From an uncultured Nitrososphaeraceae archaeon (GTDB lineage: Archaea; Thermoproteota; Nitrososphaeria; Nitrososphaerales; Nitrososphaeraceae): 35,935 bases of DNA. The stretch is from assembly GCA_963837175.1 (NCBI GenBank), contig CAWIMJ010000015.1, positions 1 through 35,935 of the forward strand. The letters are read 5' to 3'. A program made the translations under genes and the position numbers. The notes below the pieces were generated by a model. The model was not told the DNA's origin. It worked only from the letters and a program-made list of their open reading frames with translations, and made no database searches. Positions 274 to 30,516 of this stretch are shown here, in pieces (position 1 is the stretch's first letter; each line of letters starts with the position of its first letter).

Positions 274-1389
274 ATGGAATTACAGCATAAGGAAGTAATA
301 GTCCAAAAGCATAAGGAATGGGTAAGTGTTGGTGCAAGTATAAGAAAAAATGAAATAGATCTTTTCAATAAGCAACTTGACAATCTAAGATGTGAAACTC
401 TAAAGGATTTGTGTAGTCTGTTGATAGCCGGAAAACTTAGACTAGTAACAGATGATGAGCAAGTTCAAATAATGAAAGCACAGACTCAATCAACAGGCCT
501 CCTTACTTCACAAATAAGCGACAAGTTTAATTTTTGGAAACAAATAGATGATGAAGATTTCCATAAATGGCTTTTGGGAAAATATCATCCACATACCGCA
601 AACTGTTTGCATAGTTATTATATCCGGTACGTCGAGATTTTCTTTAATCCTAATCCTGACGTTGAACTTTTCAAATGCACTAATCCTAAACGTTCTTGGA
701 TTTTGCAAGCAATAAAGCGATTTGCAGACTATTACGTCAATAGATATGGAAACAAGGATGTGAAGCATTTAATTTCAAGAATAATCGAGCGATATGAACT
801 CAACAGAGGCTTGGACCATAAAGATCGTATCTATCTAGTCAGTCCAAACTTTGTTGAAGACAAAATAAACAAAATAATGAGTATACCTAGTGATATCGGG
901 TTCACTTGCAGAATTGGCTTGTTTTCAGGATTGCGTGAAGATGAAATAATTTACATTAGAGTAAATCCGATATGCGACCAATCCTTTGGTTGTCAATGTG
1001 ATAAACTTCATGTTGCAAACTGTGGGAATGGATTGTCAGTTATTACAATAAATTGGATAAGAGGTAATAAGAAGGCATTAGCAACAGTTATTCCAACTGT
1101 ATATTGGGAAAAGTTAAGGAACATGCCAAAATTCGATCAATACGATATACAAGCTGCACATAAAATATTGAAGAGAGAAGCAGGTATTGCCTATGTCATA
1201 TTGAGAAAAATACATTACAATGTTATGCGGTTCAAGAATGCCATAGAATTAGATGAGGCGGAGGTATTAGCCGGACGTTTCAAATCAGTTAGTGCTAGAC
1301 ATTATGTATTAAATGATCCTGATAAACTCTCAGGCAAGTACATCTCAGCCTGGCAAAATTTTGGAGTAAATATCGCTGAGAATATGTGA
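274..1389 (+). CDS. Archaeal SSV1-type tyrosine integrase/recombinase with N-terminal extension
   Basis: 371 aa. Motifs FSGLREDE (Arg I), INWIRGNKK, ILRKIHY (Arg II), LAGR and SVSARHY (Tyr nucleophile) match the SSV1-like integrase C-terminal pattern. Confidence 0.8.
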   Translation: MELQHKEVIVQKHKEWVSVGASIRKNEIDLFNKQLDNLRCETLKDLCSLLIAGKLRLVTDDEQVQIMKAQTQSTGLLTSQISDKFNFWKQIDDEDFHKWLLGKYHPHTANCLHSYYIRYVEIFFNPNPDVELFKCTNPKRSWILQAIKRFADYYVNRYGNKDVKHLISRIIERYELNRGLDHKDRIYLVSPNFVEDKINKIMSIPSDIGFTCRIGLFSGLREDEIIYIRVNPICDQSFGCQCDKLHVANCGNGLSVITINWIRGNKKALATVIPTVYWEKLRNMPKFDQYDIQAAHKILKREAGIAYVILRKIHYNVMRFKNAIELDEAEVLAGRFKSVSARHYVLNDPDKLSGKYISAWQNFGVNIAENM

Positions 1390-1518
1390 AGGTCGGCTTA
1401 AGTCAAGGAGAGTATCTGAATATTAATATTTATTTACTTGTGTGTACTCAACGCCATTAATACCCATTATCATGGTTGTGGATAACCTGATATACTTACC
1501 ATAATATTTTTTAAAATA

Positions 1519-1896
1519 ATGGGAAAGAAAACAATTGAAAAGATAAATTCAGATGATCTGTGGGAAAGCATTGCTAAACAGTATGAATTTATAGAAGGTG
1601 CACAAATGTCAAACAGCTTTATTATACTAATGGCCTTAAATGAATCACAACCATTAAGCACAACTCAAATATCAGAAAAAATTGCAACAAATTCAAAAGG
1701 TCAGTTATTCAAAATTTCTGGAGCGCTCAAAGATTCATTAGAGAATAGACTACGAAAAGCTGGATATGTTGATGGTACGGATATTCCAAATGAAAAAACT
1801 GATAGAAAACCAATTAGAATGACTTTGTATTCGATAACACCAAAGGGTCAAAAGCTGTTGAAGGGCTGGTTGGCATTCCTTTTAGCGTTGACATAA
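1519..1896 (+). CDS. Winged-helix (PadR/MarR-like) DNA-binding protein, paralogue 1
   Basis: 125 aa. PLSTTQISEKI helix, RLRKAGYV and LYSITPKG wing motif; clearly homologous to 3347..3784. Confidence 0.8.
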   Translation: MGKKTIEKINSDDLWESIAKQYEFIEGAQMSNSFIILMALNESQPLSTTQISEKIATNSKGQLFKISGALKDSLENRLRKAGYVDGTDIPNEKTDRKPIRMTLYSITPKGQKLLKGWLAFLLALT

Positions 1897-2155
1897 TAAT
1901 GCTCCATATATTCTAAGAATTAGTGTAGTTCTAATTCAACTAATTAGAATAAATAGCATTAAAATAATAGATATTAAAAAGGTATGCCATGGACTTGCAT
2001 GCATGAGTACACGCTTAATCAAAAGATAAGACGACATTGTATTGATTTATTGTCTCATTTTCAAAATCGCGAAAAGCTTGGATTGAAAATCTCCTGTATT
2101 ACAAATTGATAAAGAACCTTTTTACTTGAATATTATTTCTTATAGTATGACGTCG

Positions 2156-3310
2156 TAAGTCAAGTGTCATAGTATCTGTCGTTATTCCATCTTCCAAATC
2201 TTTTGTCCAGATATTCTGATACTGAGGCCTTCTGGTCTTCTATATTTTCATAAAACCTATTTGCACATACATCTGATTTTATTCTTTCATTTACCTTTCT
2301 TTCATTCGGATTCAGATACGGAGTCTTCTTTGGAAGATGGATTATGGTCAACCAATCATTCTGTGTCTTGATATATTCACAAACCATTCTGCTTATATGA
2401 AATGAAGCATTATCCCATATCAGTGTCAGTCTTTTCCATCTAGTGTTCATGACATATCTCCTTAGATTCTCCAGATGATCTATGGTGTTATTAGAGTTCA
2501 TAACGTCGTAGAAGTCATACATTAACTTCTGATCTGGCCATAGCATAGATATGTATGCAGAGAACTTCTTCCTGCTACCATTGTGTTCTATCTTATGTTG
2601 TTCTCCTTCAAAGCTCATGGATTTTATGATACATGGCTTTTGTGTTATTGTAGTTTCATCTTCAAATGCTAATATGACTCCTTTTTTTAAGAGCTAAAGC
2701 TACCTGCTTGTAGTTATCTATTTTTTCTTTGCCTTCTTCGTAATCAGGTCCATGCAGTAGTTCCAATTTTGGTCTTTTACATCTAAATCCTAAGTCTCTG
2801 GTTATGCGTTGTAGATGTTTGAAACTGATGGGAATATCAAGCTCATCTGTAAGGCATCTTGCAAGTGATTCTTAGGCTCCAAGTATTTCTGAGATAACCA
2901 AAGATATGTGGATCATTAAATAATGCTGAAACAATGATCTCTTTATCGCTATCAGTTATCCTAGATTTTGCTCCACCAGGTTTCTTGTTTTTTAATCCAT
3001 CGATTCCTTTCTTAATGTAGGCGGCAATCCATCTTTGTACGGATCTACTGTTAATTCCATGCTCCTTTGCTATGTCATGATATGTTCTACCTTCTCCTTT
3101 TTGTAATATAGCCAACAACTTGCGATACTCATTTTTGTTATCCGTAGTCTTCATGGATGACTTTAACATGTTCTTTTGTTCTATAGTAAGTCCCAGAGCA
3201 GAAGGATGATTCATAAAATGAAGATATACTACATATGTTAAGCTTTATTCCTACAAAAACCTAGACCAAGTAGTAAACAAAATACGACATGGATTTTGAC
3301 ACTTCACTTA
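2156..3310 (-). mobile_element. IS630-family insertion sequence
   Basis: Ends TAAGTCAAGTGTCATA and reverse complement TAAGTGAAGTGTCAAA (14/16 match) including the TA target duplication; encloses the transposase. Confidence 0.85.
2160..3214 (-). pseudogene. IS630 transposase (HTH + DDE), frameshifted
   Basis: N-terminal HTH (RSVQRWIAAY...G..GL) and DDE domain (FEDET, IWDNASFH, YLNPNE). Slippery AAAAAAAG site near 2680-2690 is typical of IS630; there is an extra +1 indel near 2870 (WSLR|SLAR). Confidence 0.85.
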
Positions 3311-3346
3311 GCATTTTTAAATAATATCTAGGTTTTACCTAAGGCA

Positions 3347-3784
3347 GTGCACAACCAAAAGGCTGCTGAAAATACCCCAAAAAACTTTGAAAAACAAAAG
3401 AAGAAACAGCACCTAAAAGAGTCTGATCATACTAATCAAAAGATATGGGATTCTATTGCAAAAAATTACGATATGATACAAGGTGCACAGCTTTCAAACA
3501 GTTTCATAACACTTATGGCCCTAAGTGAGGCTAATGAACCACTTAATACAACACAAATCTCTGAAATAATTTCCTTACATACAAAAGGACAGATATACAA
3601 AATTTCTGCAACTCTTAAGGATTCATTAGAGCATAGACTTAAGAGAGAAGGATATGTCGAAGGTATTGACGTACCTACCCAGGAAGGTTCACGAAAGGCG
3701 GTGAAAAAGAGTTTGTATTCGATTACCCCCAAGGGAAGAAATCTGTTAAAAGGCTGGATTAGTTTTCTATCAGCATATTCTTAA
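3347..3784 (+). CDS. Winged-helix (PadR/MarR-like) DNA-binding protein, paralogue 2
   Basis: 145 aa. IWDSIAKNY..IQGAQLSNSFI, PLNTTQISE, LKDSLEHRL and LYSITPKG..LLKGW all align with 1519..1896. Confidence 0.8.
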   Translation: MHNQKAAENTPKNFEKQKKKQHLKESDHTNQKIWDSIAKNYDMIQGAQLSNSFITLMALSEANEPLNTTQISEIISLHTKGQIYKISATLKDSLEHRLKREGYVEGIDVPTQEGSRKAVKKSLYSITPKGRNLLKGWISFLSAYS

Positions 3785-3904
3785 AAGAAATGAAATAACA
3801 CAATTCTAATAGATTCATGTAAAATAATGTATTATAATATTATAATTTTCATCATCACTTACTGCATTGATAGTTATTGTTTCCCTCGAATAGTAACAGT
3901 GTCC

Positions 3905-3955
3905 CCCGTCATTTGTTGGTCAGATAATCGTCATTTTATCGTCAAATAATCGTCA
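3905..3955 (+). repeat. Five helically phased GTCA-core direct repeats (11-bp period)
   Basis: CCCGTCA 3905, TTGGTCA 3916, ATCGTCA 3927, 3938 and 3949; followed by TATA-like AATATATA at 3961. Confidence 0.75.
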
Positions 3956-4019
3956 GATTCAATATATACGCTGATATGACATTTGCATTTTAATAAATAA
4001 AATCATCAACAAATAAATC

Positions 4020-4745
4020 ATGCAAAATCTTATAAAGAAATTGGAAAATATTAAAAGTATATTGGGACGAAAAGTACCAAAATCTATCAAACAACGAGTC
4101 ATTAAGCAATGGCTTCAAGGTATCTCTAGAGATCAGATTGCCAAAGATAATGACAAAGGAGCTGGAACTGTAAGTACTATTATAAAAGATGCTAGACAAG
4201 AGATTCCAGACATTGACTTACTCAGAGAAGTGGCTATAATCGTAAAGAAGAATTATGACTTGGATGTGTCTGTACTTGCATCCTCTATCAGAATAAAAAA
4301 CACATTAGATGGGATGGATTTAAATGAAGATCAGGTAGAATCATTCATTGAAAATATCATTATTTACTGCTTTAAGCATGGTTTGACAGGTGAGAAATTT
4401 CTTAATATTGTAAACAAGGTATGTACCTTATCAGATAACCTTGGACTGCCATTAGATCAGCTGCCTAATCATATCATACAAGAACAGTTAGAGTTGGAGA
4501 AAGTGAAAAAACAAATAGAAGATGCAAAAGTAAAACTACGTCAGGTATTGCAATATTACGATGTAACTACGGATGATCTTGAAGAATACAAAAGAAATAT
4601 ACCGTTAATTGACTATATTAAAACGTTAAAAAACCAATTAGATGAAGCAAAACAAAAAATAATTAATTTGGTTGAAAAACTTAGTGATGAGCAATTAGAG
4701 AGCGCAAAGTGGTTCCAGAAATGGAGAATTTGTTCCTCTCGTTGA
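4020..4745 (+). CDS. HTH + coiled-coil protein, probably C-terminally truncated
   Basis: VIKQWLQGISRDQIAKDNDKGAGTVSTII HTH followed by a long heptad-rich region; distantly similar to the 14228/29941 family. It ends against the integrase shard. Confidence 0.6.
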   Translation: MQNLIKKLENIKSILGRKVPKSIKQRVIKQWLQGISRDQIAKDNDKGAGTVSTIIKDARQEIPDIDLLREVAIIVKKNYDLDVSVLASSIRIKNTLDGMDLNEDQVESFIENIIIYCFKHGLTGEKFLNIVNKVCTLSDNLGLPLDQLPNHIIQEQLELEKVKKQIEDAKVKLRQVLQYYDVTTDDLEEYKRNIPLIDYIKTLKNQLDEAKQKIINLVEKLSDEQLESAKWFQKWRICSSR

Positions 4746-4780
4746 TAACTCTATAAGCTTGCACTCAATAATTGTATAGA

Positions 4781-4917
4781 CTTGCTGTAATCCTAATCAA
4801 TTGGTTCAGAGGTCATAAAAAAGCTATTTCACTATTTTACCAACCATTATGTGGAAGCAATTCAGATATATTCCAAGCTTCAATGATGTTGATCTTGACA
4901 TCGCTTACAAGCTTAAG
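4781..4917 (+). pseudogene. Fragment of a second SSV1-type integrase
   Basis: LAVILINWFRGHK then, after a frameshift in an A run, KSYFTILPTIMWKQFRYIPSFNDVDLDIAYKLK. Aligns with LSVITINWIRGNKKALATVIPTVYWEKLRNMPKFDQYDIQAAHKIL of 274..1389. Confidence 0.75.
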
Positions 4918-5075
4918 TTGTATTATAAGAGACTGTAAAGAAGCTTTTCTAGATGTTATCTTCTTATTTAAAGGAGTCGACTTATAAGGTGACTTATCTT
5001 CATGTACTTTCATAGCCTGTTTCTGATAAGTATTTAATAGTTAAACCGTTACCATATAAAAGAACTAAACTATAA

Positions 5076-5648
5076 ATTTCAATCCTATCTTAGTCAGTTT
5101 CTAACATTCTATTTAGCTCATCTCCATGATTCTGAAGTATTTGTTTCAATCCTATCTTAGTCAGTTTCTAACTTCGTTTGGAACAACCGCAGGAACAACG
5201 ATAAGAGACCAGTTTCAATCCTATCTTAGTCAGTTTCTAACATATCACAAGGATACATGCAGCTTGCAAACCAGTGGCGGTTTCAATCCTATCTTAGTCA
5301 GTTTCTAACGAATACGCTTTGCAACAGAGGCGGCAACCTGAATCGGTTTCAATCCTATCTTAGTCAGTTTCTAACGCGCGGGAGAAATTACGCATATCAT
5401 CATCTTTCATCATCAGTTTCAATCCTATCTTAGTCAGTTTCTAACTGGACTTTTGCTATTCCGTTGCAGTGTCGTCCTTCTAGGTTTCAATCCTATCTTA
5501 GTCAGTTTCTAACATATACAAAGATTTAGTGATAGCGACCATAGACATCTAGTTTCAATCCTATCTTAGTCAGTTTCTAACCGAGCGTTGGTAGGCTCTG
5601 ATGCCACACCAATTCAAGGTTTCAATCCTATCTTAGTCAGTTTCTAAC
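5076..5648 (-). CRISPR. CRISPR array, 9 repeats / 8 spacers, type I-like repeat
   Basis: 30-bp repeat GTTTCAATCCTATCTTAGTCAGTTTCTAAC at 5076 (G>A variant), 5143, 5212, 5280, 5346, 5416, 5484, 5552 and 5619. Unique spacers of 37, 39, 38, 36, 40, 38, 38 and 37 bp. The reverse complement ends in ATTGAAAC and the variant repeat is then the trailer, supporting minus-strand transcription. Confidence 0.98.
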
Positions 5649-5720
5649 ATTTCGCATCCCTCTGGGTTCGCCTATGTATGGGTAATAAAGGAATTAATAA
5701 CGTATAGACATTAAACACAT
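5649..5720 (-). promoter_or_regulatory. Putative (short) CRISPR leader
   Basis: Lies on the side opposite the degenerate repeat; has a small CCC-TCT-GGG inverted repeat and AT-rich TATA-like stretches (TTATTAAT, TTTATTAC on the minus strand). Confidence 0.5.
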
Positions 5721-5722
5721 CT

Positions 5723-5770
5723 TAATGATTCGATAGAAAAAGATTCACCTTTAGCATTGATTGCAGTAGT
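5723..5770 (-). pseudogene. Shard of the small helical 'INAKGE' family gene
   Basis: Translates TTAINAKGESFSIESL, matching TTAINAKGEPFPTEPL of 28019..28335. Confidence 0.65.
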
Positions 5771-6039
5771 TAAGAGTACATATTTGCATTTGAAATAAAT
5801 AAATAATTAGCGCAAATTAATAGCCTATTACATTTTAAAAGTCGTCATCATTACTATGGCGAATAACTAAAGAGAGTTTATAAAACATATAGATAGATAG
5901 ATAGATAGATAACCATGTTAATCCAAACTATGAAATGAAAGAAAAACCTTTAAAGCTTTTATCATCCACTCCACTATCAGTATTTTTGAATATAGTTATG
6001 GTATTGGCTCTGTTAACTTCCATTATCAGTTAAGAATAT

Positions 6040-6260
6040 GATGAGTTCGTTTCTATCAGTTTCTATATGTAGGGATACAAAATAAACATCTGGAGCATCT
6101 ATTGACATGCTCTATGTTACAACCTTTTATTCTACATGGAAAATGATCATCAAAATATTCTGTCGTATTGTTGATCTACTGATTAACCTTTCCATAAACA
6201 AGAGGGTACTCATTTTTAGGAGTTTTGAATATCTATACATAGCCACTCTCAATAACTTGT
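6040..6260 (-). pseudogene. Degraded DDE transposase C-terminus (IS6-like)
   Basis: MER... then TEYFDDHFPCRIKGCNIEHV, with stops and frameshifts; resembles thaumarchaeal IS6-type transposase ends as recalled. Confidence 0.45.
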
Positions 6261-6550
6261 CTTTATGAAGATTTGATATTTGCAATGGATTACTTAGCTT
6301 CATTGATTCATCGATATTTCCTGTCTACAATTCAAATTTAGAAAAATAGCTGATGCTTTGCATATAATAGAACAAACAATTATAATCTTGTGTAGATCGT
6401 AATCAAAATATGAATGCTTCTATAGAGCAAATATAATAAGAATTATGTAAACAGAACACTCTAACTTTAGGTATTAACTAGATAAATGCAAGAATTACTT
6501 AGTTGAACATACAATAATTTAAATTATATTCAACTAAAGAGATACTGATA

Positions 6551-7144
6551 ATGACTGAGGAGGCAGAAAGAGAAGAAATTAAAGACGAAACTCACCAATT
6601 ACAAGATGAAGAACAAGAAGAATTTGAGTCAGAGGACGAGGAGGAGGAGGAAGAAGGAGCTTCTAATCAACATCCACAACAGGGAGAAGGACATCAAATA
6701 AAACTAAAAGAAGAAGAAGAAGAATTGCAAAAAAGAGTACAAGCAAAAGCAGAGGACATAGGAGGAGGAGGAGGCATTATCAGGGAGGTGTCCGAAGAAG
6801 AAATACTTCCTATAGAAAAGGAGAAGAAATATAACGAGGATTCAAAAAAAGGAAAACAAAAGATAAAGAAAGTTAAGGCAAAAGTTAAAGCTACCAAGAA
6901 AGAATATGATAATAATAATGATTTAGCAAGCCTATCAAGACAAATTGAAAAACAGGCAAACCAAATATCAAGAATAGAAAAAATAGTTCAGCCATTACAA
7001 AAATATGTCAAAAACGTAGATATGCAATTGCAGATGGTAAAACAGATTAATGAATCAGTGAAGCAATTACAAAGACAGTTAGTACAAATTCAAAAATCCA
7101 TTGTAAAGAGTAATAGTAACAGTAGAAGAAAAAAAGGAAAGTAA
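6551..7144 (+). CDS. Low-complexity acidic/basic coiled-coil protein
   Basis: 197 aa. Glu-rich N-terminus, Lys-rich linker, C-terminal heptad repeats. Confidence 0.65.
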   Translation: MTEEAEREEIKDETHQLQDEEQEEFESEDEEEEEEGASNQHPQQGEGHQIKLKEEEEELQKRVQAKAEDIGGGGGIIREVSEEEILPIEKEKKYNEDSKKGKQKIKKVKAKVKATKKEYDNNNDLASLSRQIEKQANQISRIEKIVQPLQKYVKNVDMQLQMVKQINESVKQLQRQLVQIQKSIVKSNSNSRRKKGK

Positions 7145-7429
7145 AATCTATTGTCTCTTGATTGTTGACATTTTTCAAAAAATCGAGGTTTTAATTATTA
7201 TCTCTGCAGAATCATCGATAGATTTCATATTTTACTTTATCATAATATTGTATATGATCTAATGAATTACAAAGTGTAAAAACCATACTCTACAGACAAA
7301 CAAAATCAGGAAAGAGACATATTATCAGTTTAGAGTAGCATATCCTTAACTTATTATTGTAGCGTACAGCTTGGTAATTCTGGGTTAGTATAATAATAAT
7401 CTGAAAAGTATTTCAGCCCACTCCTGTCA

Positions 7430-8110
7430 TCGTTATTGACTTTCCTGAGCATGCTAAGTGTGGCATAAACCATCATCTATGAACAAAGGGGTAGTACCAC
7501 GCTCAGGTATTGATATACAGATGCCAGATTGGGATTGAGTCATACCGAGCAATGCATATTGGATATGAACTCCACATAACATCAAGTATTGTTTCGCTCA
7601 TAGTACCGTTATCAGCAGATTTTACTCAGACTGATGTACAAGATAATCAATTGTATCCTGCAATAACATGTACTCTTCTTAAAGTAGTGCGTTACATAGC
7701 GTCTGTTTCTGGATATGATGACCATAAGCTGTATAATCTAAACATAGACAGAGGATTTGAATTAGTATGTCCGGTATCAGAAATAACAGAAGAAAAGTAT
7801 GCTTTATTGTTTCAAATACTATACAGGACTTAACAGAAGAGCGTGTTAAATACAAGAATGCTGGTTTAGAAGTTGAAAGTCAGGCAATCATTACAAGCAT
7901 ACCAAGATAAAATAACAAGTTATATGATTATGGCATTACTTTATCTATAATTAGAGAATCTGTCAAACCTTATGCTTTGTTGCATAACTAAAGAAATCGC
8001 AATTGTTAAGCGTTTTCAGCATTATTCGATTTACATTTAGAATGTATTCTTACCTATAGAATAAGGATTTTTTAACATTAATGACTAATATCAGAGTTAT
8101 GCAACAAAGC
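7430..8110 (+). pseudogene. Degraded DDE transposase (IS5/IS1182-like)
   Basis: VWHK..SMNKGVVPRSGID, GYELHITSS..IVPLSADFTQTDVQDNQ and SGYDDHKLY across frameshifts; IS-end-like GTTATGCAAC near 8096. Confidence 0.6.
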
Positions 8111-8199
8111 AAAACCTTACTCTGAATTCATTAGCGGGGACATCTTTCGTCTTCTCCCACACCCTCTTAATTTCGGTATTGTCATTATTGTTTCCATCG

Positions 8200-8480
8200 G
8201 ATAGTAGCAGAGTTTGCTTCTCCTTTGAAATTAGCTGCATAGAAGATCACTTGTTCTTCGAATTTGGCTTCAGCGAAGTTTGTGCCAGCTTTGAAAGTAG
8301 AAAAAGAGAAGTTTGCCTCTTCTTGGAATTGAGACTCACTGAATTTTATTAAGCCTCCTTGGAATTTAGTTTCAGAAAAATTAGATTTTTTGAATTGAGA
8401 TTTATGAAAATTAACCCCTAGAGGAAATTGTCTTTTACTAAAATCTATCTCTGTTTGAAATTTAGCTTCATGGAAGTCAA
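8200..8480 (-). pseudogene. Pentapeptide-repeat protein fragment
   Basis: Start-less open frame DFHEAKFQTEIDFSKRQF...ANFSFSTFKAGTNFAEAKFEEQVIFYAANFKGEAN, with Phe every 5-6 residues. Confidence 0.75.
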
Positions 8481-8517
8481 TTTAATAATAAGAAATAATG
8501 CAGTAGACTTAATACTA

Positions 8518-9489
8518 TTATTGAGCCTTCTTCTCTATTGTCCTTCTTGTACGCTCAATTAGATTCATCAACTGATAACCATATTCAAGGTTGTGTTTAA
8601 CATGATTGATACCATGGGAAGCATCAGCTATGAATTTATTATCAAGGATATTTTCAATATAGACTCTGACTCTTTTTACAGAGTTAGCAGCACGTCCAAA
8701 TTGATAAGCTGCAATCTCTCTACCAAGTTGCGTTTCTATTTCCTGTCTAAATTCTTGTCCTGAGCCTTCTATTATTAGTCTGCTATATTTTTGTAATCGA
8801 CTATAGTTGCGGCATATTTCACTTATCCGCTTCAGGTCTGAATCCTGCAATCTTGATAGCGATTCTTCTAGCTCTTTTCTTTCTCTATTTGTTATCTGAG
8901 CAAGCCTTTCAACAAGGTCCTTATTCGATAATAAGAGTCTCTCCTTATGTATAGTGGCTGCTGTCGTTGAAGTTGCTATCACAGTTACCTGTGTTTTCCA
9001 TTCCTTTTTCTGTTCTTCTCTAGTCATCGTTGATTGCTGTTTCCTTAATTGATAATATTTCTCAATACCGATTGAACTTACTTTAGTGCCTTTAGTATCA
9101 ATACCTTGGTTAATAATAGAAATAACATCGACGACAATTGTTGGAAAGTTTAACTTTAGACTATGACTGAAGTTTTCATAGTTTTCTATAATATCTCTAT
9201 AGATCTTGAGGATTACATTGTTTATTATTTGTGAACTCATTCTTTTCTCTTCTATACCTTTTGCAGATAATGTCAGAAAGTCAGACAATTGTGATTGGGA
9301 AAAGACATAGGAAGCCAGTGAAGAATATGCATTTGCTATAATCTTTATAGCTTTAATCCATTCGTTACTAAGATTTCCCGATTCTTTTGGATCTTTTTGT
9401 ACAAGTTCCAAGGCATCACGATAAATTTCGTTATCTTTTTCTATCTTTAATATATTAAGACAATGAAGTAGTGTTTCCATGAGTGGCAT
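8518..9489 (-). CDS. Helical hypothetical protein ending in an HD-domain-like first motif
   Basis: 323-aa intact ORF; C-terminal SHGINHVKHNLEYG resembles HD motif I, but no HD dyad follows. Confidence 0.7.
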   Translation of the reverse strand: MPLMETLLHCLNILKIEKDNEIYRDALELVQKDPKESGNLSNEWIKAIKIIANAYSSLASYVFSQSQLSDFLTLSAKGIEEKRMSSQIINNVILKIYRDIIENYENFSHSLKLNFPTIVVDVISIINQGIDTKGTKVSSIGIEKYYQLRKQQSTMTREEQKKEWKTQVTVIATSTTAATIHKERLLLSNKDLVERLAQITNRERKELEESLSRLQDSDLKRISEICRNYSRLQKYSRLIIEGSGQEFRQEIETQLGREIAAYQFGRAANSVKRVRVYIENILDNKFIADASHGINHVKHNLEYGYQLMNLIERTRRTIEKKAQ

Positions 9490-9610
9490 ACGTCAATAAT
9501 TTATATGATATTCAGACCTTTATGCTTCGAATACAAATGTTCTTGATCATAGTAATGTACTATCTTTTTAATCATATATCCTAGAACTATTCCCTTCTCG
9601 ATTTAAGGTC

Positions 9611-9644
9611 TTATAGATAGTGTCAAGATGGTTATAGATAGTGT
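9611..9644 (+). repeat. 13-bp perfect direct repeat, 21-bp period
   Basis: TTATAGATAGTGT at 9611 and 9632, upstream of 8518..9489. Confidence 0.6.
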
Positions 9645-9770
9645 TTAGTGATTGTTATATCACAAGATGTGGGAAATTCACCTATCCTCTTTCTAATCCT
9701 ATCATCTAGAAGATTAACATTCTCATTTTCTTTTACTGCTCCGGTCGATTGTGTGTAACTGTTACTGGAA

Positions 9771-9923
9771 TGTGCACATCTTAAATAATTACATTCCCAT
9801 AACTTGACCTTATGGAAAGTGCAAAGGATTTTATAGATAGGTCAGACGCAGAGCTGATAAAATCCTACTTGTTGGGAGGAGTACCTGATATGTCACACGT
9901 AGATGGAGTTGACGATGGCGTAG
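9771..9923 (+). repeat. Duplicated promoter/RBS/5' end of the 26844 gene
   Basis: Homologous to about 26718..26877. The 39-bp core CTGATATGTCACACGTAGATGGAGTTGACGATGGCGTAG is identical (9885-9923 = 26839-26877). Confidence 0.85.
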
Positions 9924-9964
9924 ACTCCGTCATATGGAAATCTTTTATAGTTATCACCATATCC

Positions 9965-10119
9965 AATGCCACTTTTATCGCAATAAATATGTGTCCTGAG
10001 CTTGAAGGATCGACATTAAATCTTACCCCAACTAATAAACCATTAGTATCTATCACAGAAATTGTATTTGTACCAGTTTGGTTAACATATACATCATTAA
10101 TAGATGAGTCAACCATCAT
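9965..10119 (-). pseudogene. YVTN/YncE beta-propeller shard
   Basis: VDSSINDVYVNQTGTNTISVIDT is one YVTN-type repeat. Confidence 0.55.
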
Positions 10120-10179
10120 AAAACTTGCTGCATGGAAAAGCTTAGTTGGGCTAATGGAGTCAAATTATATAGACGCATT

Positions 10180-10263
10180 GACGATGGAAAGCTGTATACC
10201 TAAATCTACCTAGTCTACTTAAGAGTTTATAGCTATCAATATGTTATTTAGTTATCGTAGCAT
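10180..10263 (+). promoter_or_regulatory. Conserved promoter of RHH-like gene (copy 1)
   Basis: 76/84 identical to 16919..17002; TTTATA box preceded by three TAC(C/T)T repeats about 10 bp apart. Confidence 0.7.
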
Positions 10264-10674
10264 ATGGATGCTTTAAATCAAAATAACAACAAGAAACTAA
10301 CAAAGGTACTCTCAACAAAACTATCAGTAGAAGATTATAATTCATTTGTTATACTAACCAAGATTGAATATGAAGCTGGATTAATAAAAGAAGAAAGTAC
10401 ATCAGAATTATTACGATTTACTATAAGACATATACTAAAGCAAGCTCATAATCAACCTGAATATCTTATACTCGTACAAGAGCAACAGCAACATCAGAAG
10501 CAAGTTCAAAACAATCAGCAGAAACAACAGCTTCATAATCAAGTTATTCTACCGTCACCTCCTCCTACTTCTATTGCTTATCATCAAAGTCAAGTTCATA
10601 ATATATCTCGTACAAACAATTTCATTGGTCAGAAAATGTCACCATGGAAATTATCATCATTACTATCACGCTAA
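10264..10674 (+). CDS. Ribbon-helix-helix-like protein with Gln/Pro-rich tail (copy 1)
   Basis: KVLSTKL strand, SVEDYNSF helix and STSELLRFTIRHIL helix; paralogues at 17003 and about 20062. Confidence 0.7.
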   Translation: MDALNQNNNKKLTKVLSTKLSVEDYNSFVILTKIEYEAGLIKEESTSELLRFTIRHILKQAHNQPEYLILVQEQQQHQKQVQNNQQKQQLHNQVILPSPPPTSIAYHQSQVHNISRTNNFIGQKMSPWKLSSLLSR

Positions 10675-10756
10675 TGAATCACCATACATTATAGTGATAA
10701 TGAGGTATGAAATGATCTACTAATCTTTAAAGACAGACGAAGATTTTCTAAACAGT

Positions 10757-11260
10757 ATGTCAAATAACTCAAATACTGTGTTAACTATGTTCTACATAGT
10801 TACATTCATTGTGTGTGTCTCACCTTTAGAAACTAATGCACTTAGCACATTTGATCAGACTGACAATATTGCTTTGGATAACATCCAGGCTTCCGATACC
10901 TCTAATCGCACAAGCGGTGGTCTTAATTCATGGGTATGTTTCACAGAATTCGGTCAGACAGATTGTAATGATATGTCAAATGCTTCAAGTACATATATAG
11001 GACTAGCAGCAGGAGCTGCAATTGGTGGAGGGATAAGCTGGTGGATTTATAACCGACAGAATAAGACTTCTCGTAAGCAAGATGATATTCTAGACTCCAT
11101 TAAGGAGATTGAACGAAAGAATAAAGAAATATTGACACATTTAGAGTCATATGCAAAACACCATGATTTAGTTTTAAAGAAAATACTTCACCTAGACGAA
11201 CACATAGAAGCATTAACCAAAAAGATCGAAAGTACAGCACAAGAAGATCCTCATTCCTGA
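10757..11260 (+). CDS. Signal-peptide + single-TM + coiled-coil hypothetical protein
   Basis: Hydrophobic N-terminus, TM segment YIGLAAGAAIGGGISWWIY, C-terminal heptads. Confidence 0.65.
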   Translation: MSNNSNTVLTMFYIVTFIVCVSPLETNALSTFDQTDNIALDNIQASDTSNRTSGGLNSWVCFTEFGQTDCNDMSNASSTYIGLAAGAAIGGGISWWIYNRQNKTSRKQDDILDSIKEIERKNKEILTHLESYAKHHDLVLKKILHLDEHIEALTKKIESTAQEDPHS

Positions 11261-11681: not shown

Positions 11682-12902
11682 TAACTAATTATGGGAAATC
11701 TACTACAAAAGTGTTATGGAGCGGAGATATTGACTCTTCAGCTGACGATGGTAGAATAGTGAGATATCATTGATGGTACTGAAAGAGATGGCGGACAAGG
11801 ACAAGTTCAATGAGACTGCCGAGAACATGATTTTTGCCCTGTCTTTAGAAAGATAGAATATAGCAATAAGCTACAAATGAAGAGACTAGATAAGGTTTCT
11901 ACACCAAAGAAAGTATTGTTCATAGAACTGAGTATATTGGTACTTGGAATTAGATTACTCGCCATAGGCCTTCAATCACCTGCGTTTTCATAACTACTCC
12001 AATGTGGATATGATCATGGGATGAACAACATACGTATCAAACAGAAGAAACTACATGTAATAATAATCAACCACAAATTTATAACGGTAATCAAGAGCAA
12101 GCAAAAGAATAGTAACAGCTATTGTCAACAAAATTGCAGCTTATTTTATAAATATTCAAAATCTATCAGATGCTGATTCTTTTAGTAAAATAAAGCAGTG
12201 GATTTTAAATAGTAAAACCAAAGGCCTGGGAATGGCTGTTTTTTCTAACTAAAACGTTTGTAATAAGATGTTAGAAAATAATAACTAATAAGAGTTATGA
12301 AGCAAAGAAAGATACACAAATCAATATAATATATACTCAGAATATGAGCAACAAAAAAGAGAAGTAGGATATTTTCATTAAATTTGTTTCATTTAACCTT
12401 CTTAACAGAAGAGTATTACGGCTGCAGGAATACCCTGAACTCTATTAATATCTGTTATTCTTGAATGTAGTAGATATGCGAATTTATGTTAGTTAGTATA
12501 TAATATAGAGAGTAGTAGAACTTATTTTATTAGTTTTAGTAGTTCTCCAATTTAGGCGCGCTGCCCAATTTCATGTGGTTATCAACAAAAGTAAGTGAGC
12601 TATAATTGCTTTTATTGTTCAGCAAAAATATTTTTCGACTAGGCGGTGCGAAGTAAGAAAACTAATAAACGCTTACCATTGAATTTAGAGGACTCTATAA
12701 AACATGAATGCGCAATAATAGAGCCGCGCGCCGACAGGAGAAAAGTTTGTTTTATGGTAAGTAGTTTTATTATTAGTTCTCTTTATTTTATATATTGACA
12801 AATTTGGTTGTGGCTGCAATGAAGAAGAGAGAAGAGAATAAAAAGAACAACCCAACGCAAATGAACCTGTAGTAGTTCGTTTCACAAATTCAATTAGTTA
12901 AT

Positions 12903-13484
12903 ATGGCTGGTATCTGCATAATCCAAGGAATAAGCAATTTGGATTCGAAGACTAGAAACAAAATTGTTATCTTAGGCACGGTATTTGGTTCTCTTCTATT
13001 GTCTTATAGTGCTACGGTATTTTTTATTCCGAACGCATATGCTATTAATAACACTGAGGCAATAGGAGGTCTAGCCGAAACTGTTGATTTAGGCAGTCCC
13101 TTTTATATTCAGCATTATCAGTCTGTTGTTGAAAAGCCACAATCCGAAGACGAGCCTGGAAACTTTACAGGCGAAGGGATACTCAATGGAAGCTTGAGCG
13201 TGAGTGCAATAGGGAATAGCACCGAAACCCTCAGAAATAATGACACAGTCTATATCCAAGGGAATGCAAAGTACTTTACTGATGATAACATGGACATGGC
13301 AAACTACAACTTCCAAGCGATAGGTAATTATCGTCCAGACGGTACTTTCGAAAGTAGGGGAGTGGCGATCTTTGATGATGTTGCTACTGGAAAACTCTCG
13401 GGTCTAAGCAATTCAGTTGCCATCTATAAGGACAGGATTGATACCAACGGAAACGGGACATTTCTTATGTGGCACTGGAAATAA
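12903..13484 (+). CDS. Secreted beta-rich hypothetical protein
   Basis: Signal peptide ending PNAYA; Gly/Asn/Thr-rich beta strands; ATGKLSGLSN motif; ends WHWK. Confidence 0.7.
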   Translation: MAGICIIQGISNLDSKTRNKIVILGTVFGSLLLSYSATVFFIPNAYAINNTEAIGGLAETVDLGSPFYIQHYQSVVEKPQSEDEPGNFTGEGILNGSLSVSAIGNSTETLRNNDTVYIQGNAKYFTDDNMDMANYNFQAIGNYRPDGTFESRGVAIFDDVATGKLSGLSNSVAIYKDRIDTNGNGTFLMWHWK

Positions 13485-13589
13485 GATATTGTGAAAACAA
13501 GAGAAATATTATTTATAGATGGACTGACTGTTAATATGGATCCTAGGTTGACTACCTGCTACATATGCAGCTAAAGTTTTCAAAAAGAC

Positions 13590-13832
13590 ATGGGATTTAA
13601 TTTTCATAGCATCAAATTTGAATCATGGGAAGGCTTTGAATATGCTCTGAGAGAAGAAAATAGAATTTTATTTGATAAGTTTATAGAAGAAAGCAAAAGA
13701 GAAGAATATGCTAATGCTGTTAATGCTAAAGGAAAATTATTTGCAACTGAAAGCTTGTTTATGGTTTTGATATTTCAACAGAAAAAAATGATTAGTCAAT
13801 TAATTGCAAAATTGTCAGAATATAAAAAATAA
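13590..13832 (+). CDS. Small helical 'NAKG' family protein
   Basis: ESWEGFEYALREENRILFD...AVNAKGKLFATESLFMVLIFQQ; paralogue of 28019 and more distantly 33643. Confidence 0.7.
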   Translation: MGFNFHSIKFESWEGFEYALREENRILFDKFIEESKREEYANAVNAKGKLFATESLFMVLIFQQKKMISQLIAKLSEYKK

Positions 13833-14157: not shown

Positions 14158-14227
14158 ATTCCTATAAATATTGCAGTTGCAGGCGCTTTAAGCTTACATC
14201 ATAGTATAACTCTTTAAGATACAAAAA

Positions 14228-14597
14228 ATGACGATATTAACTAGACAGGAAAGAGAAAGACTTGTACTAGAGCTTTACAACCTAGGTAAAACTTATCGTG
14301 AAATATCTAAAGAGGCAAGAATATCTCCACGTGATATAGGAGTTATTTTGAATAAGGTAGTTGAAGAGAAGAAGAAAGAAGGATTGAAGAGGAATAAAAC
14401 AAGAAGATAATACTGATGTTGAGAACAACGAAGAACAACAACTATCTCTATCGACCCAAGCATACAAACTCTTTTCTGAAGGTAAGACTCCATTAGAAGT
14501 AGCTATTGCATTAAACCTAAGAGAGTCAGAGGCAACTAAATTCTACAGAGAATATTGGAAGCTAAAACAACTACACAATCTGAATATGGTTTATGAA
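14228..14597 (+). pseudogene. HTH-coiled-coil family gene, 5' part
   Basis: LVLELYNLGKTYREISKEARISPRDI HTH, a frameshift, then LSTQAYKLFSEGKTPLEVAIALNL...WKLKQLHNLNMVYE; breaks off at 14597. Confidence 0.8.
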
Positions 14598-15759: not shown

Positions 15760-16438
15760 GTAAAAAGCAACAGTCTTTGCAGAGAAAGGAAGAACTGATA
15801 ATATTTGGGCTTTCAATAGCATCCTCAAGTTTATACAATTACTCAAAGAACGCGTTGACCGTAAAGAAATAACTGCAGGAACAATACGCAACTACGTAAA
15901 AAGTATAAAGTTATTCTGTCAGATGGCAGACATTTCTATACCATGGGACAAAATTACAAGGGGTATTCCAAGGGGAAGAAGATACGCTGATGATAGAGCG
16001 CCAACATTAGATGAAATTAAAAAGATGTGTGAATATCCTGACAGGCGAATAAAACCACTTATCTACACTATGGTATCTTCAGGTATACGTGTTGGTGCTT
16101 GGGACTATTTGCATTGGGGAAATATTCAGCCTATCCAACAAGAAGGTAAAATTGTAGCATCAAGAATGATAGTTTATGCTGGTGAAGATGATTCCTATAT
16201 TACTTACATAACTCCATAGGCCTACCGAGCACTTGCAGAATGGATGAAGTATAGAGAAGAATCAGGAGAGATAATAACTGATAATAGCTGGGTTATGCGT
16301 GATCTATGGGATACGAGAGTTAAGATAAGTAAAGGGCTAATAACAATTCCAAAGATACTAACTGCTATAGGCGTAAAGAGATTGATGGAGCGCGCTATTT
16401 GGGCGCAAGGTTTGAGAAAGAAATTAGAACAGGAATAG
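15760..16438 (+). pseudogene. Tyrosine recombinase (second, non-SSV family), disrupted
   Basis: EITAGTIRNYVKSIKLFC, DDRAPTLDEI and SSGIRVGAW (Arg I). In-frame TAG at 16217-16219; truncated before the HxxR/Tyr motifs. Confidence 0.85.
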
Positions 16439-21038: not shown

Positions 21039-21679
21039 TAGTAGTGAACATTCCCTGATCGAACTCATGAATTAACTCTGTCACGAACGATACAGATTAA
21101 TTTTCTTCTTAAACCTACATTATCGTTGCCTTCATCATCATTTCCACATACACACAATCAAGTAATACTTATAGAATAGAAGAGCCCGAAGGCTATTATA
21201 ATAATAGTAAAGGCAATATTGCTAATTGATTTAATAACAGCAATCATAATTCATTTACAATATTGGCTATTCAATGTAGTAGACCTGTATTAAAGTAAAG
21301 TTATTCCATTGCTTTAGCACGTAAGAAAAATATGATTTTGTGGCAGTAAGAACTGCCGATGTTTTTATTCGACGCCGAATTCTATTTCACCTGCATTTTC
21401 ACAGCCTGCAAAGCCACTACATCTGTTACTCTGATCTTGTTCAAAACTGAAGCTTGTATCGTCTCCGCCGCCATCTCCTCTGCAGTCGTGTACACTAGCT
21501 TTGTTATACTTCTTGCTGTATTTCTCTTCGGATCACTTGCTGGTTCCTCTAACTCAGCAGCCTTTGCTAGTTCTGACACTTCAGAGAAATGTAACAGGTT
21601 TCTCTACCATTCAAAATTATGTTACTATCAGAGTCAGAACTGAACAAGATCCAATGTCTTATAGTTAAGAGTGATTCAC

Positions 21680-22468
21680 TTAAGGGACTACCTTAATATT
21701 CCACTTAGCAACGTCATGTTCTACAGGTTGGTTAGGCTTGAAGGGGTTTTCGTATTACTTGCAATTCTATAGTATGATCTCCAACTGGCAATGGTTTGAA
21801 GAACAGATAATAATGTTCAGCCATTGATGTATTGTTTCCACCAACGATAGGTGCTTTCCACTCGAAAGGATTATCTGGAGGCACAATAAAATTGAATGGT
21901 TTAGAAGTAGTTTGACGGACAATATTAGATGAAACATCCTGGCCGTCAACCTTGACTTGCATCAATTTAATCTCTTTGTTTGAATCTTTTGCGCAAATTA
22001 AAAGATCAGCAGGGGACTTGTATCCGGATATTCGCCTTCATGAGGTTTTGATCCTGTAGAACATTCACCGGTATATACAGTCAAGTAGAGTAGTTGACTA
22101 GATGATATTTCACATTTTTGGTTTCTTGCATTCACGTTTTTTGCTACCGCAAAGGAGGGATTTCCCAAAAAGACTACCGATTGGTTATTACCTATGATAC
22201 CACCATCTCCCTTCAGACATTCAGGCCAATTTTTATCAGTAGTACTAGGGTTAGCAATCTCCCAATTCCACCACTTTGCTATTAGAGGTTCAAGCGAATT
22301 AACTCCAGCTGGTGGAGAATTAGGAGAATAAAAATCAATACCAGCTGGACTAGCATACAAGTTCTTTAAAGGACTACTAGTAATAATAAGGATGGCTGTC
22401 ATTAATAGAGTTAAGAATATTATGTTCCGAATGTCTAATCTTATGCTATGAAGAGATAATGAATGCAT
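21680..22468 (-). pseudogene. Secreted Cys-containing protein, split by two frameshifts
   Basis: Signal peptide (..LYAS), KWWNW...C...VVFLG...CEI...ECS. Continues in 21732..21965 (VKVDG...FFKPLPVGDHTI) and ends WNIKVVP in a third frame. Confidence 0.65.
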
Positions 22469-24090
22469 CAACTTAATACTATTGATGTTTCGAAACTGGA
22501 TTGATATAATCTTTTGTAACTCTAGGACGAAATAATATGACATAATGACTTTTATTTGTTGATTTATTGAGATAATTTGCCACCATTGAAGGTTGTTGTA
22601 GATAATTTCATTCTTAGCAGATTGATTATAGCCACAATCATATAAGAACCGATTGAACAGAATTTGATGTGTTCAAGTTATTGAAAATATTAAGTCATAG
22701 GTTAGCGTTTTAACAAAGATAGTTTGAATATTTACCAAATTCAGCATTATCTCTCGCCTCGTTTAATGTGTGATCCCTTTTGTATCTCATTCAATACCTC
22801 CTCTATCATTAGTTTTTACATCTTCTTCGTCAGGATCTGTATCCATATGGCTTCTCATCTCATCCGACAATTTGATTTTGTTGGCAAGTGGTAGGACCCT
22901 CTTTTCTATTTCTCGTTGCATTTCTGCCATTCCTATCTTCTTCAAGACATCAGCATCAACTTCTAAGCCTTTATAGATCTCTCGTCGTAATTCACTATCT
23001 CTAGAAACATATGTTGCACATCCGAACATTCCAACAAGAAGCATATATGATGATAGTCCTAAGAACAAAAGCGTGACAAGTCCAAACGGGGGATATGCTC
23101 CATAGAATGGCATTCCTGGTTGCATTGAACTAAATAATGAGACAATACCTATGGAAGAAATTATCAAATAGTTTTTCAAACCTTTTCGTTTCATTTTTCT
23201 TCCAATAATCAAGAAGGCAATAGCGAAAAATAATCCAGATACTTGATAGCTAATTCCAAAGATGACCTGGAATTGCTGGGAGTATATAATTTCAACTAAG
23301 GTAGGATCAGTTACTAAGTTTGAATCTCTTACAATAAATGAGAAAACTTGGTAGAGTAATGGAATACCAACTATTAGCCAGAATCTCTTCTTTCCAATTC
23401 TGTTTGCATAGGGTTTAAGTAATAAAGCCGTGAGGATCCATGAAGATATTATCATCAGAGGCAAAACATAGTTTCCCAGTCCATAGATGAATGCAATATC
23501 ACTAGAGGGAACAATTACGCCCGTAATTAGAGATGTATAATCTCTGGGATATATCAACTGAGACTGATTCGTAAACTGTTGTGTAAGCAACGGAACAGTG
23601 ATTAAAATTAGAAATAGAATCACACTGAAAACAACTGCATAAATTAGGATTGAAAAAGATGTAGCAAATCTAAACCATTGTATGAATATTAAAGATAGGA
23701 TTCCAAGTATAATAGCAGACCAAATATGACTGAGATATACTACTAATAATGAGAATATCTTATTATATTCATGGAAAATAAGCATTTCTGAGATCATGAT
23801 AAACAATATGAGCGATATAGTGTATTGGACTAGGGATGTACCAATATAAGTAACTTTAAACAATAATGGTCGACTAGTTGTCGAATGAATATCATTTCTT
23901 TTGGCGGATAGGCAGCAATATGGTATTAATTATTGAAGAAACGATAACAAATGATGCAAACAATAACAAATGCAAATTGCCAGGAGTTCCTAAATCAGTT
24001 CCATAGAAAATGTTAATGAACTGAGAGTCCACTATGGTAAGAACAACTATAAGTGAAATCAGTATAAGTGCCTGCTTGCTACTACTTAAT

Positions 24091-30402: not shown

Positions 30403-30516
30403 TCTTGTCAGTACGTTGAGTTGCAAAATTGAGTCAATTCTATCCTGCATCCCACCGAACCCGTTGTGATATCACTTCTTTATTAGGATTCCATGCGAAT
30501 AAAAAGGAGAGAAAAA

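Follow-up and report, generated by a model that had tools for sequence, protein, structure and literature searches.

A CRISPR array without cas genes in mobile-element-derived DNA of an uncultured Nitrososphaeraceae archaeon

Introduction

The DNA considered here, referred to as the window, is an entire contig of 35,935 bp (CAWIMJ010000015.1, contig C15 below) from an uncultured Nitrososphaeraceae archaeon (GCA_963837175.1), and its left end holds an intact integrase gene, two winged helix-turn-helix (wHTH) genes, fragments of further mobile-element genes and a CRISPR array with no cas gene beside it. The assembly comprises 3.81 Mb in 58 contigs, with a completeness of 91.5%, a contamination of 3.2% and a GC content of 33-34% (its contigs are given as C, genomes of relatives as G and individual loci as L). 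Base 1 of the window is the first base of the contig and the integrase gene starts 273 bp from that end, and the DNA further to the left is unreadable because the contig begins there. Multicopy sequences make up a mosaic along the entire contig, which relatives match in short multicopy pieces only, with no long synteny. An earlier sequence-only reading proposed an integrative element that carries its own array for competition between elements and borrows the Cas proteins of its host, or else an undescribed linkage between recombinase or regulator genes and CRISPR, with chance adjacency as a further alternative. Thus far we find the array in element-derived DNA at a junction that occurs twice in the genome, in an assembly where no cas gene was detected.

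The array and its duplicated junction

The features on which the argument turns are as follows.

4737-4913 (to 4915), plus strand: integrase shard, a frameshifted internal/C-terminal part of a second integrase gene, recognized by tblastn of a 71-residue open reading frame (ORF)
4914-5075, plus strand: trailer flank, whose first ~75 bp come from another HTH241-like gene as a shard of its N-terminal part (HTH241 is the multicopy gene described below)
5076-5648, minus strand: CRISPR array of 9 repeats of 30 nucleotides and 8 spacers of 36-40 nucleotides, type I-B repeat family
5649-5669, minus strand: junction of 21 nucleotides between the leader-proximal repeat and the next shard, without the leader of the repeat family
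5670-5772, minus strand: gene shard, the 3' end of a small family-conserved gene with the motif AINAKGEPFP, unrelated to CRISPR

The array was initially described as a near-perfect one of nine repeats and this description holds. The repeat, GTTTCAATCCTATCTTAGTCAGTTTCTAAC on the plus strand, occurs at 5076-5105, 5143-5172, 5212-5241, 5280-5309, 5346-5375, 5416-5445, 5484-5513, 5552-5581 and 5619-5648; eight of the nine copies are identical, the leftmost and outermost has A for G at its outer base, and all eight spacers are mutually dissimilar. The locus therefore has what defines a CRISPR array, namely at least three near-identical direct repeats of 23-47 nucleotides with unique spacers of similar length between them. 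In the CRISPR RNA (crRNA) sense, which is the minus strand, the repeat reads GTTAGAAACTGACTAAGATAGGATTGAAAC and ends in ATTGAAAC; its last eight bases match the usual crRNA handle of type I and III systems. Because of this ending, and because the left repeat is the degenerate one, the trailer is placed on the left (the repeat at 5076) and the leader side on the right (the leader-proximal repeat at 5619-5648), an orientation backed by related loci in which cas2 or cas6 lies upstream in the crRNA sense. A k-mer scan found no other array in the genome, which also has a two-repeat remnant on C34, and 15 further periodic clusters were dismissed as coding tandem repeats from the self-identity of their periods, with visual inspection as well for eight. 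For the repeat RNA no notable hairpin was obtained (-2.4 kcal/mol, z -1.3, with the fold one base off register), and Rfam gave zero matches on 4500-7000.

The left side of the array is where its association with mobile DNA can be read. The shard of a second integrase reported to end about 160 bp from the trailer repeat is indeed there, at a distance of 161 bp, and is homologous to integrase genes elsewhere in the genome, being 92% identical (164/178) to C34:34288-34464 and 84% identical to the genes at C34:39611-39731 and C16:166619-166739. The trailer flank that follows it is 93% identical (151/162) to C34:35230-35391. Together these matches outline a second, decayed copy of integrase shard, flank and array junction at C34:34274-36361 (L086 4274-6361). 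Its trailer repeat has the same A variant plus a 4-nucleotide deletion and is followed by a 37-nucleotide spacer and a second repeat, which is split by an IS5-like insertion of ~870 bp with TTAG duplicated on either side and is intact (30/30) once the insertion is removed; no repeats were found beyond it. This copy retains two parts that are gone from the window, the integrase gene's end and HTH241-like residues 1-68 (encoded at C34:35076-35282 and matched by the C-terminus of the shard ORF in the window), from which it follows that the array abuts a truncated HTH241-like gene. With the junction between array and element DNA present twice, on C15 and C34, a one-off chance adjacency is ruled out, and the proposal that the array lies in mobile-element-derived DNA is borne out.

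Contigs from two of four soil DNA runs compared match 4981-5131 and 5077-5225 with zero differences; these runs are possibly the source sample of the assembly, and the matches are therefore not independent support. No RNA runs containing the stretch were listed.

Absence of cas genes and of a leader

A Pfam scan covered 29 ORFs of the window, nine in the first 9.5 kb and 20 of the 26 of at least 90 residues from 9 to 36 kb (several of the six outside the scan being overlapping opposite-strand frames), and none of the 29 is a cas gene. Among these ORFs, as claimed, no cas gene accompanies the array; the DNA to the left of the window lies beyond the contig start. Nine cas family models were then run across the genome, with control genomes giving a signal every time. 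Those for Cas1, Cas2, Cas5d, Cas6, DevR-type Cas7, Cas_Cas7, RAMP and Csm1 had zero matches in the 91.5%-complete assembly, and the cas3_core model detected six helicases, all below the cut-off (top score 70 bits against 102). Searches by tblastn with 515 ORFs from CRISPR-bearing stretches of 13 relatives, most of them beside Cas1, recovered only housekeeping neighbors, and those with 14 ORFs of the G008 locus and the Cas2 of Candidatus Nitrosopolaris recovered non-cas genes only. A 45-residue match on C33 to a 790-residue ORF of G008 was considered as a cas3 remnant and discarded, since it lies in a TFB-like gene. Neither beside the array nor elsewhere in the assembly, therefore, were the cas genes of a type I-B locus found, and no other array is present in the assembly, such as might go with matching Cas proteins of the host. 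Cas genes are sparse in the family as a whole, with Cas1 present in eight of 81 genomes and Cas_Cas7 in seven of 238, and in the genus of the window each is found in none of seven genomes, this one counted. The idea that the array borrows host Cas proteins is left without support by the empty models and tblastn searches and by the absence of Cas1 and Cas7 from the other six genomes of the genus, and the suggested search for a cas operon with the same repeat elsewhere in the genome found none.

The leader side tells a similar story. The leaders of L055, L017 and L069 (the last a 21-repeat array) can be aligned with one another and have in common a junction motif and, ~70-85 nucleotides upstream of the first repeat, a BRE/TATA-like box, GTGGAYCYTTATATW. 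Both are absent from the right flank of the window and from the C34 flank, and no leader-like sequence occurs elsewhere in the genome, so that the promoter-bearing leader and conserved leader-repeat junction of a type I-B locus are missing here. One box-like site at 5734-5748 was rejected, as it has three mismatches and lies inside the gene shard; the window holds eight such sites against 10.8 expected by chance. The array is cut off at its leader end, because an unrelated gene shard begins 21 nucleotides past the last repeat. This shard (5670-5772) is 94% identical to G002:C195:14858-14960, where no repeats occur, and its motif was found in ORFs at six of ten relatives' loci examined. The gene to which it belongs is conserved across many Nitrososphaeraceae genera, with the protein motif ...CYKY..AINAKGEPFPTE.... 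With the leader common to true arrays of the repeat family gone, the earlier view of a working module is not supported.

It could be argued that a matching cas operon was missed in assembly or binning, lying perhaps just to the left of the contig start, and that the array is an ordinary, working one; a completeness of 91.5% in 58 contigs and a window that begins at the first base of its contig give some room for this. However, among loci of this repeat family L055 and L063 have their cas genes on the leader side and L017 has them on both, whereas here that side is 30 kb long with non-cas genes only, and no leader is left. No partial cas gene was found at any contig end by tblastn with the cas loci of relatives, and Cas1 and Cas7 are missing from all seven genomes of the genus that were searched. 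We regard this explanation as very improbable.

The repeat family in other genomes

By its sequence the repeat belongs to a type I-B repeat family, whose members are found beside type I-B cas genes. A Ca. Nitrosopolaris contig (L055) holds seven copies of the identical 30-nucleotide repeat, in an array flanked by a Cas2 gene on the leader side (Pfam, 70 bits) and by the housekeeping gene moeA on the trailer side. Further arrays, of Methanomicrobia, Thermococci, Thermoplasmata and other groups, share a 19-nucleotide core of the repeat (19 stretches), among them one on a Methanoculleus contig (L063) where the core stands beside Cas2, Cas1, Cas4, a Cas8-like CXXC protein, Cas7, Cas5 and Cas3. Within the family, a genome of a different genus (G008) has a related repeat in a degenerate five-repeat array at L017 (G008:C111), where the order over 4022-11243 is Cas6 (4022-4696), the array, a 588-residue ORF, Cas7 (PF05107), a 182-residue ORF and a 790-residue ORF. 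With its array in decay and adaptation genes absent, the locus resembles a type I-B effector module, in a genome without a Cas1 match.

At up to three mismatches the repeat was found in five of 60 other relatives' genomes, as decayed mini-arrays in G008 and G018 and as single copies in G021 (twice), G022 and G035. None of these five genomes has a Cas1 match above the family cut-off, G018 giving one weak fragment below it. Three soil metagenome contigs hold one perfect copy each. The single, intact or near-intact repeats lie at L018 8613-8641, L021 1831-1859, L057 4207-4236, L071 3637-3666, L072 1843-1872 and L073 846-875, with mutually unrelated neighbors (PNPOx, CBS, BNR and MCM-like genes). 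The genomes in question are cas1-less and the other hosts are soil metagenome contigs; arrays that have collapsed, or repeats that stand alone, may account for these copies.

These survivals bear on another explanation, in which a former chromosomal type I-B locus lost its cas genes and elements and insertion sequences (IS) accumulated around it later, making the link to the integrase incidental. The persistence of the repeat family in degenerate or single form in five Cas1-less genomes and three metagenome contigs would be expected of such relics, as would the placement of the identical L055 repeat between cas2 and a housekeeping gene and the mosaic of multicopy sequences that makes up the contig. 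However, what flanks the array on its trailer side is an element gene in truncated form, and a junction present twice in the genome is unexplained by a single ancestral locus. There is also no synteny with L055 beyond the repeats, the moeA gene of this genome lying on C12, distant from any repeat, and the repeat (at up to three mismatches) is in none of the six other genomes of the genus. A chromosomal relic is therefore quite unlikely in our view.

Spacers and repeat conservation

What the array may once have targeted was sought in several collections, as the sequence-only reading had suggested, and no match to viral or mobile-element sequence was obtained. The spacers had zero matches in their own genome (blastn-short), the whole array gave only chance matches to cultured phages (E >=2), and against 238 family genomes, with two candidate places scored per genome, only repeats were matched. 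In IMG/VR, where five of the eight spacers (2, 3, 4, 6 and 8) were searched as exact 24-26-mers, no match was found. A resemblance between spacer 1 and the lone C34 spacer (24 of 40 columns) was set aside, as 345 of 2000 shuffles equalled it. Sampling of thaumarchaeal mobilomes from soil is poor. In the excerpted text of a study of 487 nitrifier arrays, these had no match with fewer than two mismatches among the soil viruses of that study (PMC11849493). The pooled spacer GC is 43.9% over 303 nucleotides against 34.0% for the genome, a value reached by 2.6% of 20,000 random genome windows, and this composition would fit foreign protospacers.

The repeats themselves hold a further clue. The flank copies on C15 and C34 differ by 7-8%, and if these changes are divided evenly between the lineages, the eight inner repeats, 240 nucleotides in all, should have gained about nine substitutions, where zero are observed. 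Either the array was growing or being homogenized after the split, or the divergence took place in cas-positive hosts and each copy arrived on its own, or the repeats are under selection.

The integrase and its recurrent partners

The genes to the left of the array form, in part, a conserved backbone.

274-1389, plus strand: intact tyrosine recombinase of 371 residues, 'archaeal phage integrase' family, first gene of the integrase-wHTH(-HTH241) backbone
1519-1896, plus strand: wHTH regulator (PadR/MarR-like) of 125 residues, conserved downstream partner of the integrase
2160-3214, minus strand: decayed IS630-like transposase between the wHTH genes, in two ORFs (HTH part 2843-3214, DDE part 2160-2618)
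3347-3784, plus strand: second wHTH paralogue of 145 residues, which aligns with the wHTH genes of relatives
4020-4745, plus strand: HTH241, a helix-turn-helix and coiled-coil protein of 241 residues with a weak HTH_23 match, encoded in multiple copies and placed after the wHTH gene in related elements

The integrase matches Pfam PF16795 just short of the cut-off (E 9.7e-6, 26.0 bits against 27) and the integrase family PHROG 5127 (E 1e-8). It has 202 homologues, for which 371 residues is the usual length and most of the 120 listed carry PF16795. Residues R221, K266, H314, R319, R335 and Y344 are invariant in an alignment of 25 sequences, and the alignment together with a structural model (predicted local distance difference test, pLDDT, 78) gives a tyrosine recombinase fold with the catalytic Arg/Lys/His/Arg/Tyr set. 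This fold is shared with the SSV1 integrase, to whose catalytic domain (3uxu/3vcf) and to archaeal XerA (4a8e) the catalytic domain of the window protein is closest by Foldseek, with template-modeling (TM) scores to target of 0.58-0.61 and weak E-values (2e-3 to 1e-2) for the top matches. At the sequence level nothing relevant was found in the Protein Data Bank with either the protein or its profile, no solved SSV1 integrase chain being matched, and neither protein nor alignment queries found relatives in IMG/VR.

At three of 14 loci scanned, intact homologues lie ~290-500 bp downstream of a tRNA gene, either tRNA-Ala (C16 of this genome and G018) or tRNA-Gly (G019). C-terminal fragments starting near residues 214-257 were seen at five loci, with stops and frameshifts and with no adjoining tRNA. 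An unsplit integrase gene beside a tRNA is what we take to be the pNOB8-like arrangement, as opposed to the SSV1-type split, and the tRNA-adjacent intact homologues point to the unsplit type. The description of an 'intact SSV1-type integrase' consequently stands for the whole gene and at the level of the fold and, by a match just short of its cut-off, of the Pfam family; as to splitting on integration, the tRNA-adjacent homologues point the opposite way. The tRNA target of the window integrase may lie just beyond the contig end.

The twin paralogous wHTH genes were also correctly recognized. They are 59-61% identical and PadR-like below the Pfam cut-off in both cases (E 8.8e-4 for the first, E 1.8e-3 for the second), and the first has a winged helix-turn-helix fold in its model (pLDDT 72), with top Foldseek matches that are nearly all MarR/PadR regulators at TM scores to target of at most 0.71. 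The transposase between them is identified by DDE_3 (E 6e-14) and HTH_28/HTH_23 (E 4e-11) and has copies or fragments on C19, C34 and C57, while paralogues of HTH241 are found on C5, C43, C34, C9, C12, C16 and C21. Among 16 integrase loci from eight relatives the wHTH gene lies directly downstream in five, one of which (G019, L123) has the full order integrase-wHTH-HTH241, and two further integrase-wHTH pairs are on C34 of this genome. The integrase-wHTH(-HTH241) backbone is therefore a recurrent element.

A recurrent association of this backbone with CRISPR is another matter, and the co-occurrence check set out beforehand was negative in both directions. No array was found within 8 kb on each side of any of the 16 homologous integrase loci, where six periodic k-mer clusters proved to be tandem coding repeats, and integrase, wHTH or HTH241 proteins occurred in none of the 30 stretches that hold the repeat family elsewhere. 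A general linkage of recombinase or regulator with CRISPR is thus not upheld, and the association of array and element would be a single capture event, copied later.

An alternative more favorable to function is that the element carries portable immune memory against competing elements, using type I-B Cas proteins in trans that would come from a later-arriving cas-bearing integrated element or from the other hosts of the element. The duplicated junction is in keeping with this, as are repeats that stay perfect despite the divergence of their flanks, the identical repeat beside cas2 in another genus and the foreign-like GC of the spacers; precedents are described, in the excerpted texts, in two thaumarchaeal conjugative elements with cas-less arrays (PMC6563490) and in Sulfolobales virus mini-arrays (PMC6858448). 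However, cas genes were found neither in this genome nor in the six others searched in the genus, the promoter-bearing leader is missing although the published virus mini-arrays keep theirs, as excerpted (PMC6858448), none of the 16 related integrase loci has an array, and no spacer match was obtained in the collections named above, with two places scored in each family genome and IMG/VR searched for five of eight spacers. On balance we consider this unlikely.

Other features of the window

Additional multicopy sequences lie further to the right. An element of ~415 bp at 14185-14597 encodes a frameshifted small HTH-like protein (MTILTRQERERLVLELYNLGKTYREISKEA...); seven more copies in this genome cover at least 60% of the surrounding 491-bp query, and dozens occur in the genus at 75-88% identity. 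A 2.5-kb segment at 21600-24100, with a 358-residue ORF that has no Pfam match, is 90-92% identical to stretches of C34, C36, C42 and G005:C19 and is probably a mobile element. The 15 nucleotides at 30449-30463 are identical to the 3' end of tRNA-Lys(CTT) at C7:3527-3621, and window 15764-16435 is 92% identical to C7:2615-3286, which lies at a distance of 240 bp from the tRNA; these two stretches may represent an attachment-site remnant of another integrated element. Finally, a recent duplication inside the genome has left 1.58 kb at 12036-13619 with 99% identity to C34:90459-92043.

Origin and fate of the array

The explanation that we favor, at a probability of roughly 60%, is that the array is an inert fragment lodged in, and copied with, debris of mobile-element DNA. 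A leaderless, cas-less type I-B array fragment would then lie inside a pile of intact and broken integrase-wHTH-HTH241 elements, which would be cryptic elements that integrate at tRNA genes. The composite of integrase shard, truncated HTH241-like gene and array would have been copied or acquired at least twice, giving the C15 and C34 loci, and would have originated in a cas-positive Nitrososphaeraceae lineage, by transfer on such an element or by recombination into it. In the present host the array is most likely inert because Cas6, which would cut its transcript, Cascade and Cas3, which would use it, and Cas1-Cas2 and the leader, which would serve to extend the array, are all lacking. Perfect repeats and a duplicated mobile-DNA junction argue for recent import rather than slow decay in place, and from the contrast of perfect repeats with a 7-8% difference between the flank copies we infer that the array was active or homogenized after the copies split.

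Several observations weigh against this explanation. Eight repeats free of substitutions are unlike the product of long neutral decay and fit recent arrival, but they also fit ongoing use, and the arrays of Cas1-less relatives are visibly degenerate. Neither attachment (att) repeats nor a tRNA were found around the array and no element borders were seen; its placement inside an element consequently rests on gene content and the duplicated junction. A cas locus may also have gone unassembled, given the completeness, the 58 contigs and a contig start so close to the integrase. A bolder proposal would be that cas-less soil Nitrososphaeraceae keep intact type I-B repeats, both in arrays and singly, as small tRNA-integrating elements shuttle array fragments among lineages, usable once a cas-bearing integrated element arrives, with the perfection of the repeats in two diverged copies being due to selection and not to recent arrival; we think this distinctly unlikely.

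If our favored explanation of an inert, copied fragment is correct, the locus shows one stage in the fate of an array, in which the leader is lost, the host lacks Cas and a sister copy is broken by an IS. It also gives reason for caution in spacer-based host assignment in soil metagenomes, as arrays may sit in genomes that are unable to use them. Should the array instead prove to be transcribed and put to use in trans, that would argue for an immune memory that travels apart from the Cas machinery.

Comparison with known systems

Orphan CRISPR arrays are common. Like those in cas-less genomes, the array described here is in an assembly with no cas gene and is flanked by IS and gene fragments, but unlike orphan arrays decaying in place it has perfect repeats and a duplicated junction with mobile DNA.

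Closer parallels come from integrated elements and viruses of archaea. In the excerpted text of Krupovic et al. (2019; PMC6563490), four thaumarchaeal integrated elements carry arrays, two of them with complete type I-B genes, while the arrays of the other two, which are conjugative elements, are cas-less and have the repeats of a cas-bearing array in the host; loss of cas genes from a cas-bearing array is proposed there as the origin of stand-alone arrays. Going by these descriptions, the window resembles NCAV2-E1 and NitIsl-E1 of Nitrosocaldus in having a cas-less I-B-like array in integrated mobile DNA of an ammonia-oxidizing archaeon. As excerpted, however, those arrays have 69-96 spacers, lie in defined conjugative elements and are accompanied by a matching host array with working I-B genes, whereas ours has eight spacers and neither defined borders, a leader nor host cas genes were found for it (PMC6563490). 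An incomplete type I-B system borne by a provirus is also described, in excerpt, for Haloferax.

Medvedeva et al. (2019; PMC6858448), again as excerpted, describe leader-bearing mini-arrays carried by viruses, together with single repeats that stand without a leader on viruses and on plasmids. The mini-arrays of SPV1 and SPV2 (Sulfolobales) are comparable to the array of the window in being cas-less, in lying in mobile DNA and in having repeats that match cellular systems, and the leaderless stand-alone repeats resemble the single repeats seen here in relatives. By the same account, SPV1 and SPV2 differ in their one or two spacers, a host-like BRE/TATA leader, spacers that match sister viruses and Cas-bearing hosts, none of which four was found here (PMC6858448). 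Overall, the array falls among the known cas-less arrays of mobile elements and differs from them by its Cas-less host, its missing leader, its small size and its decayed sister copy, and, as a case from soil Nitrososphaeraceae, it enlarges the small set of cas-less arrays known from integrated elements of thaumarchaea.

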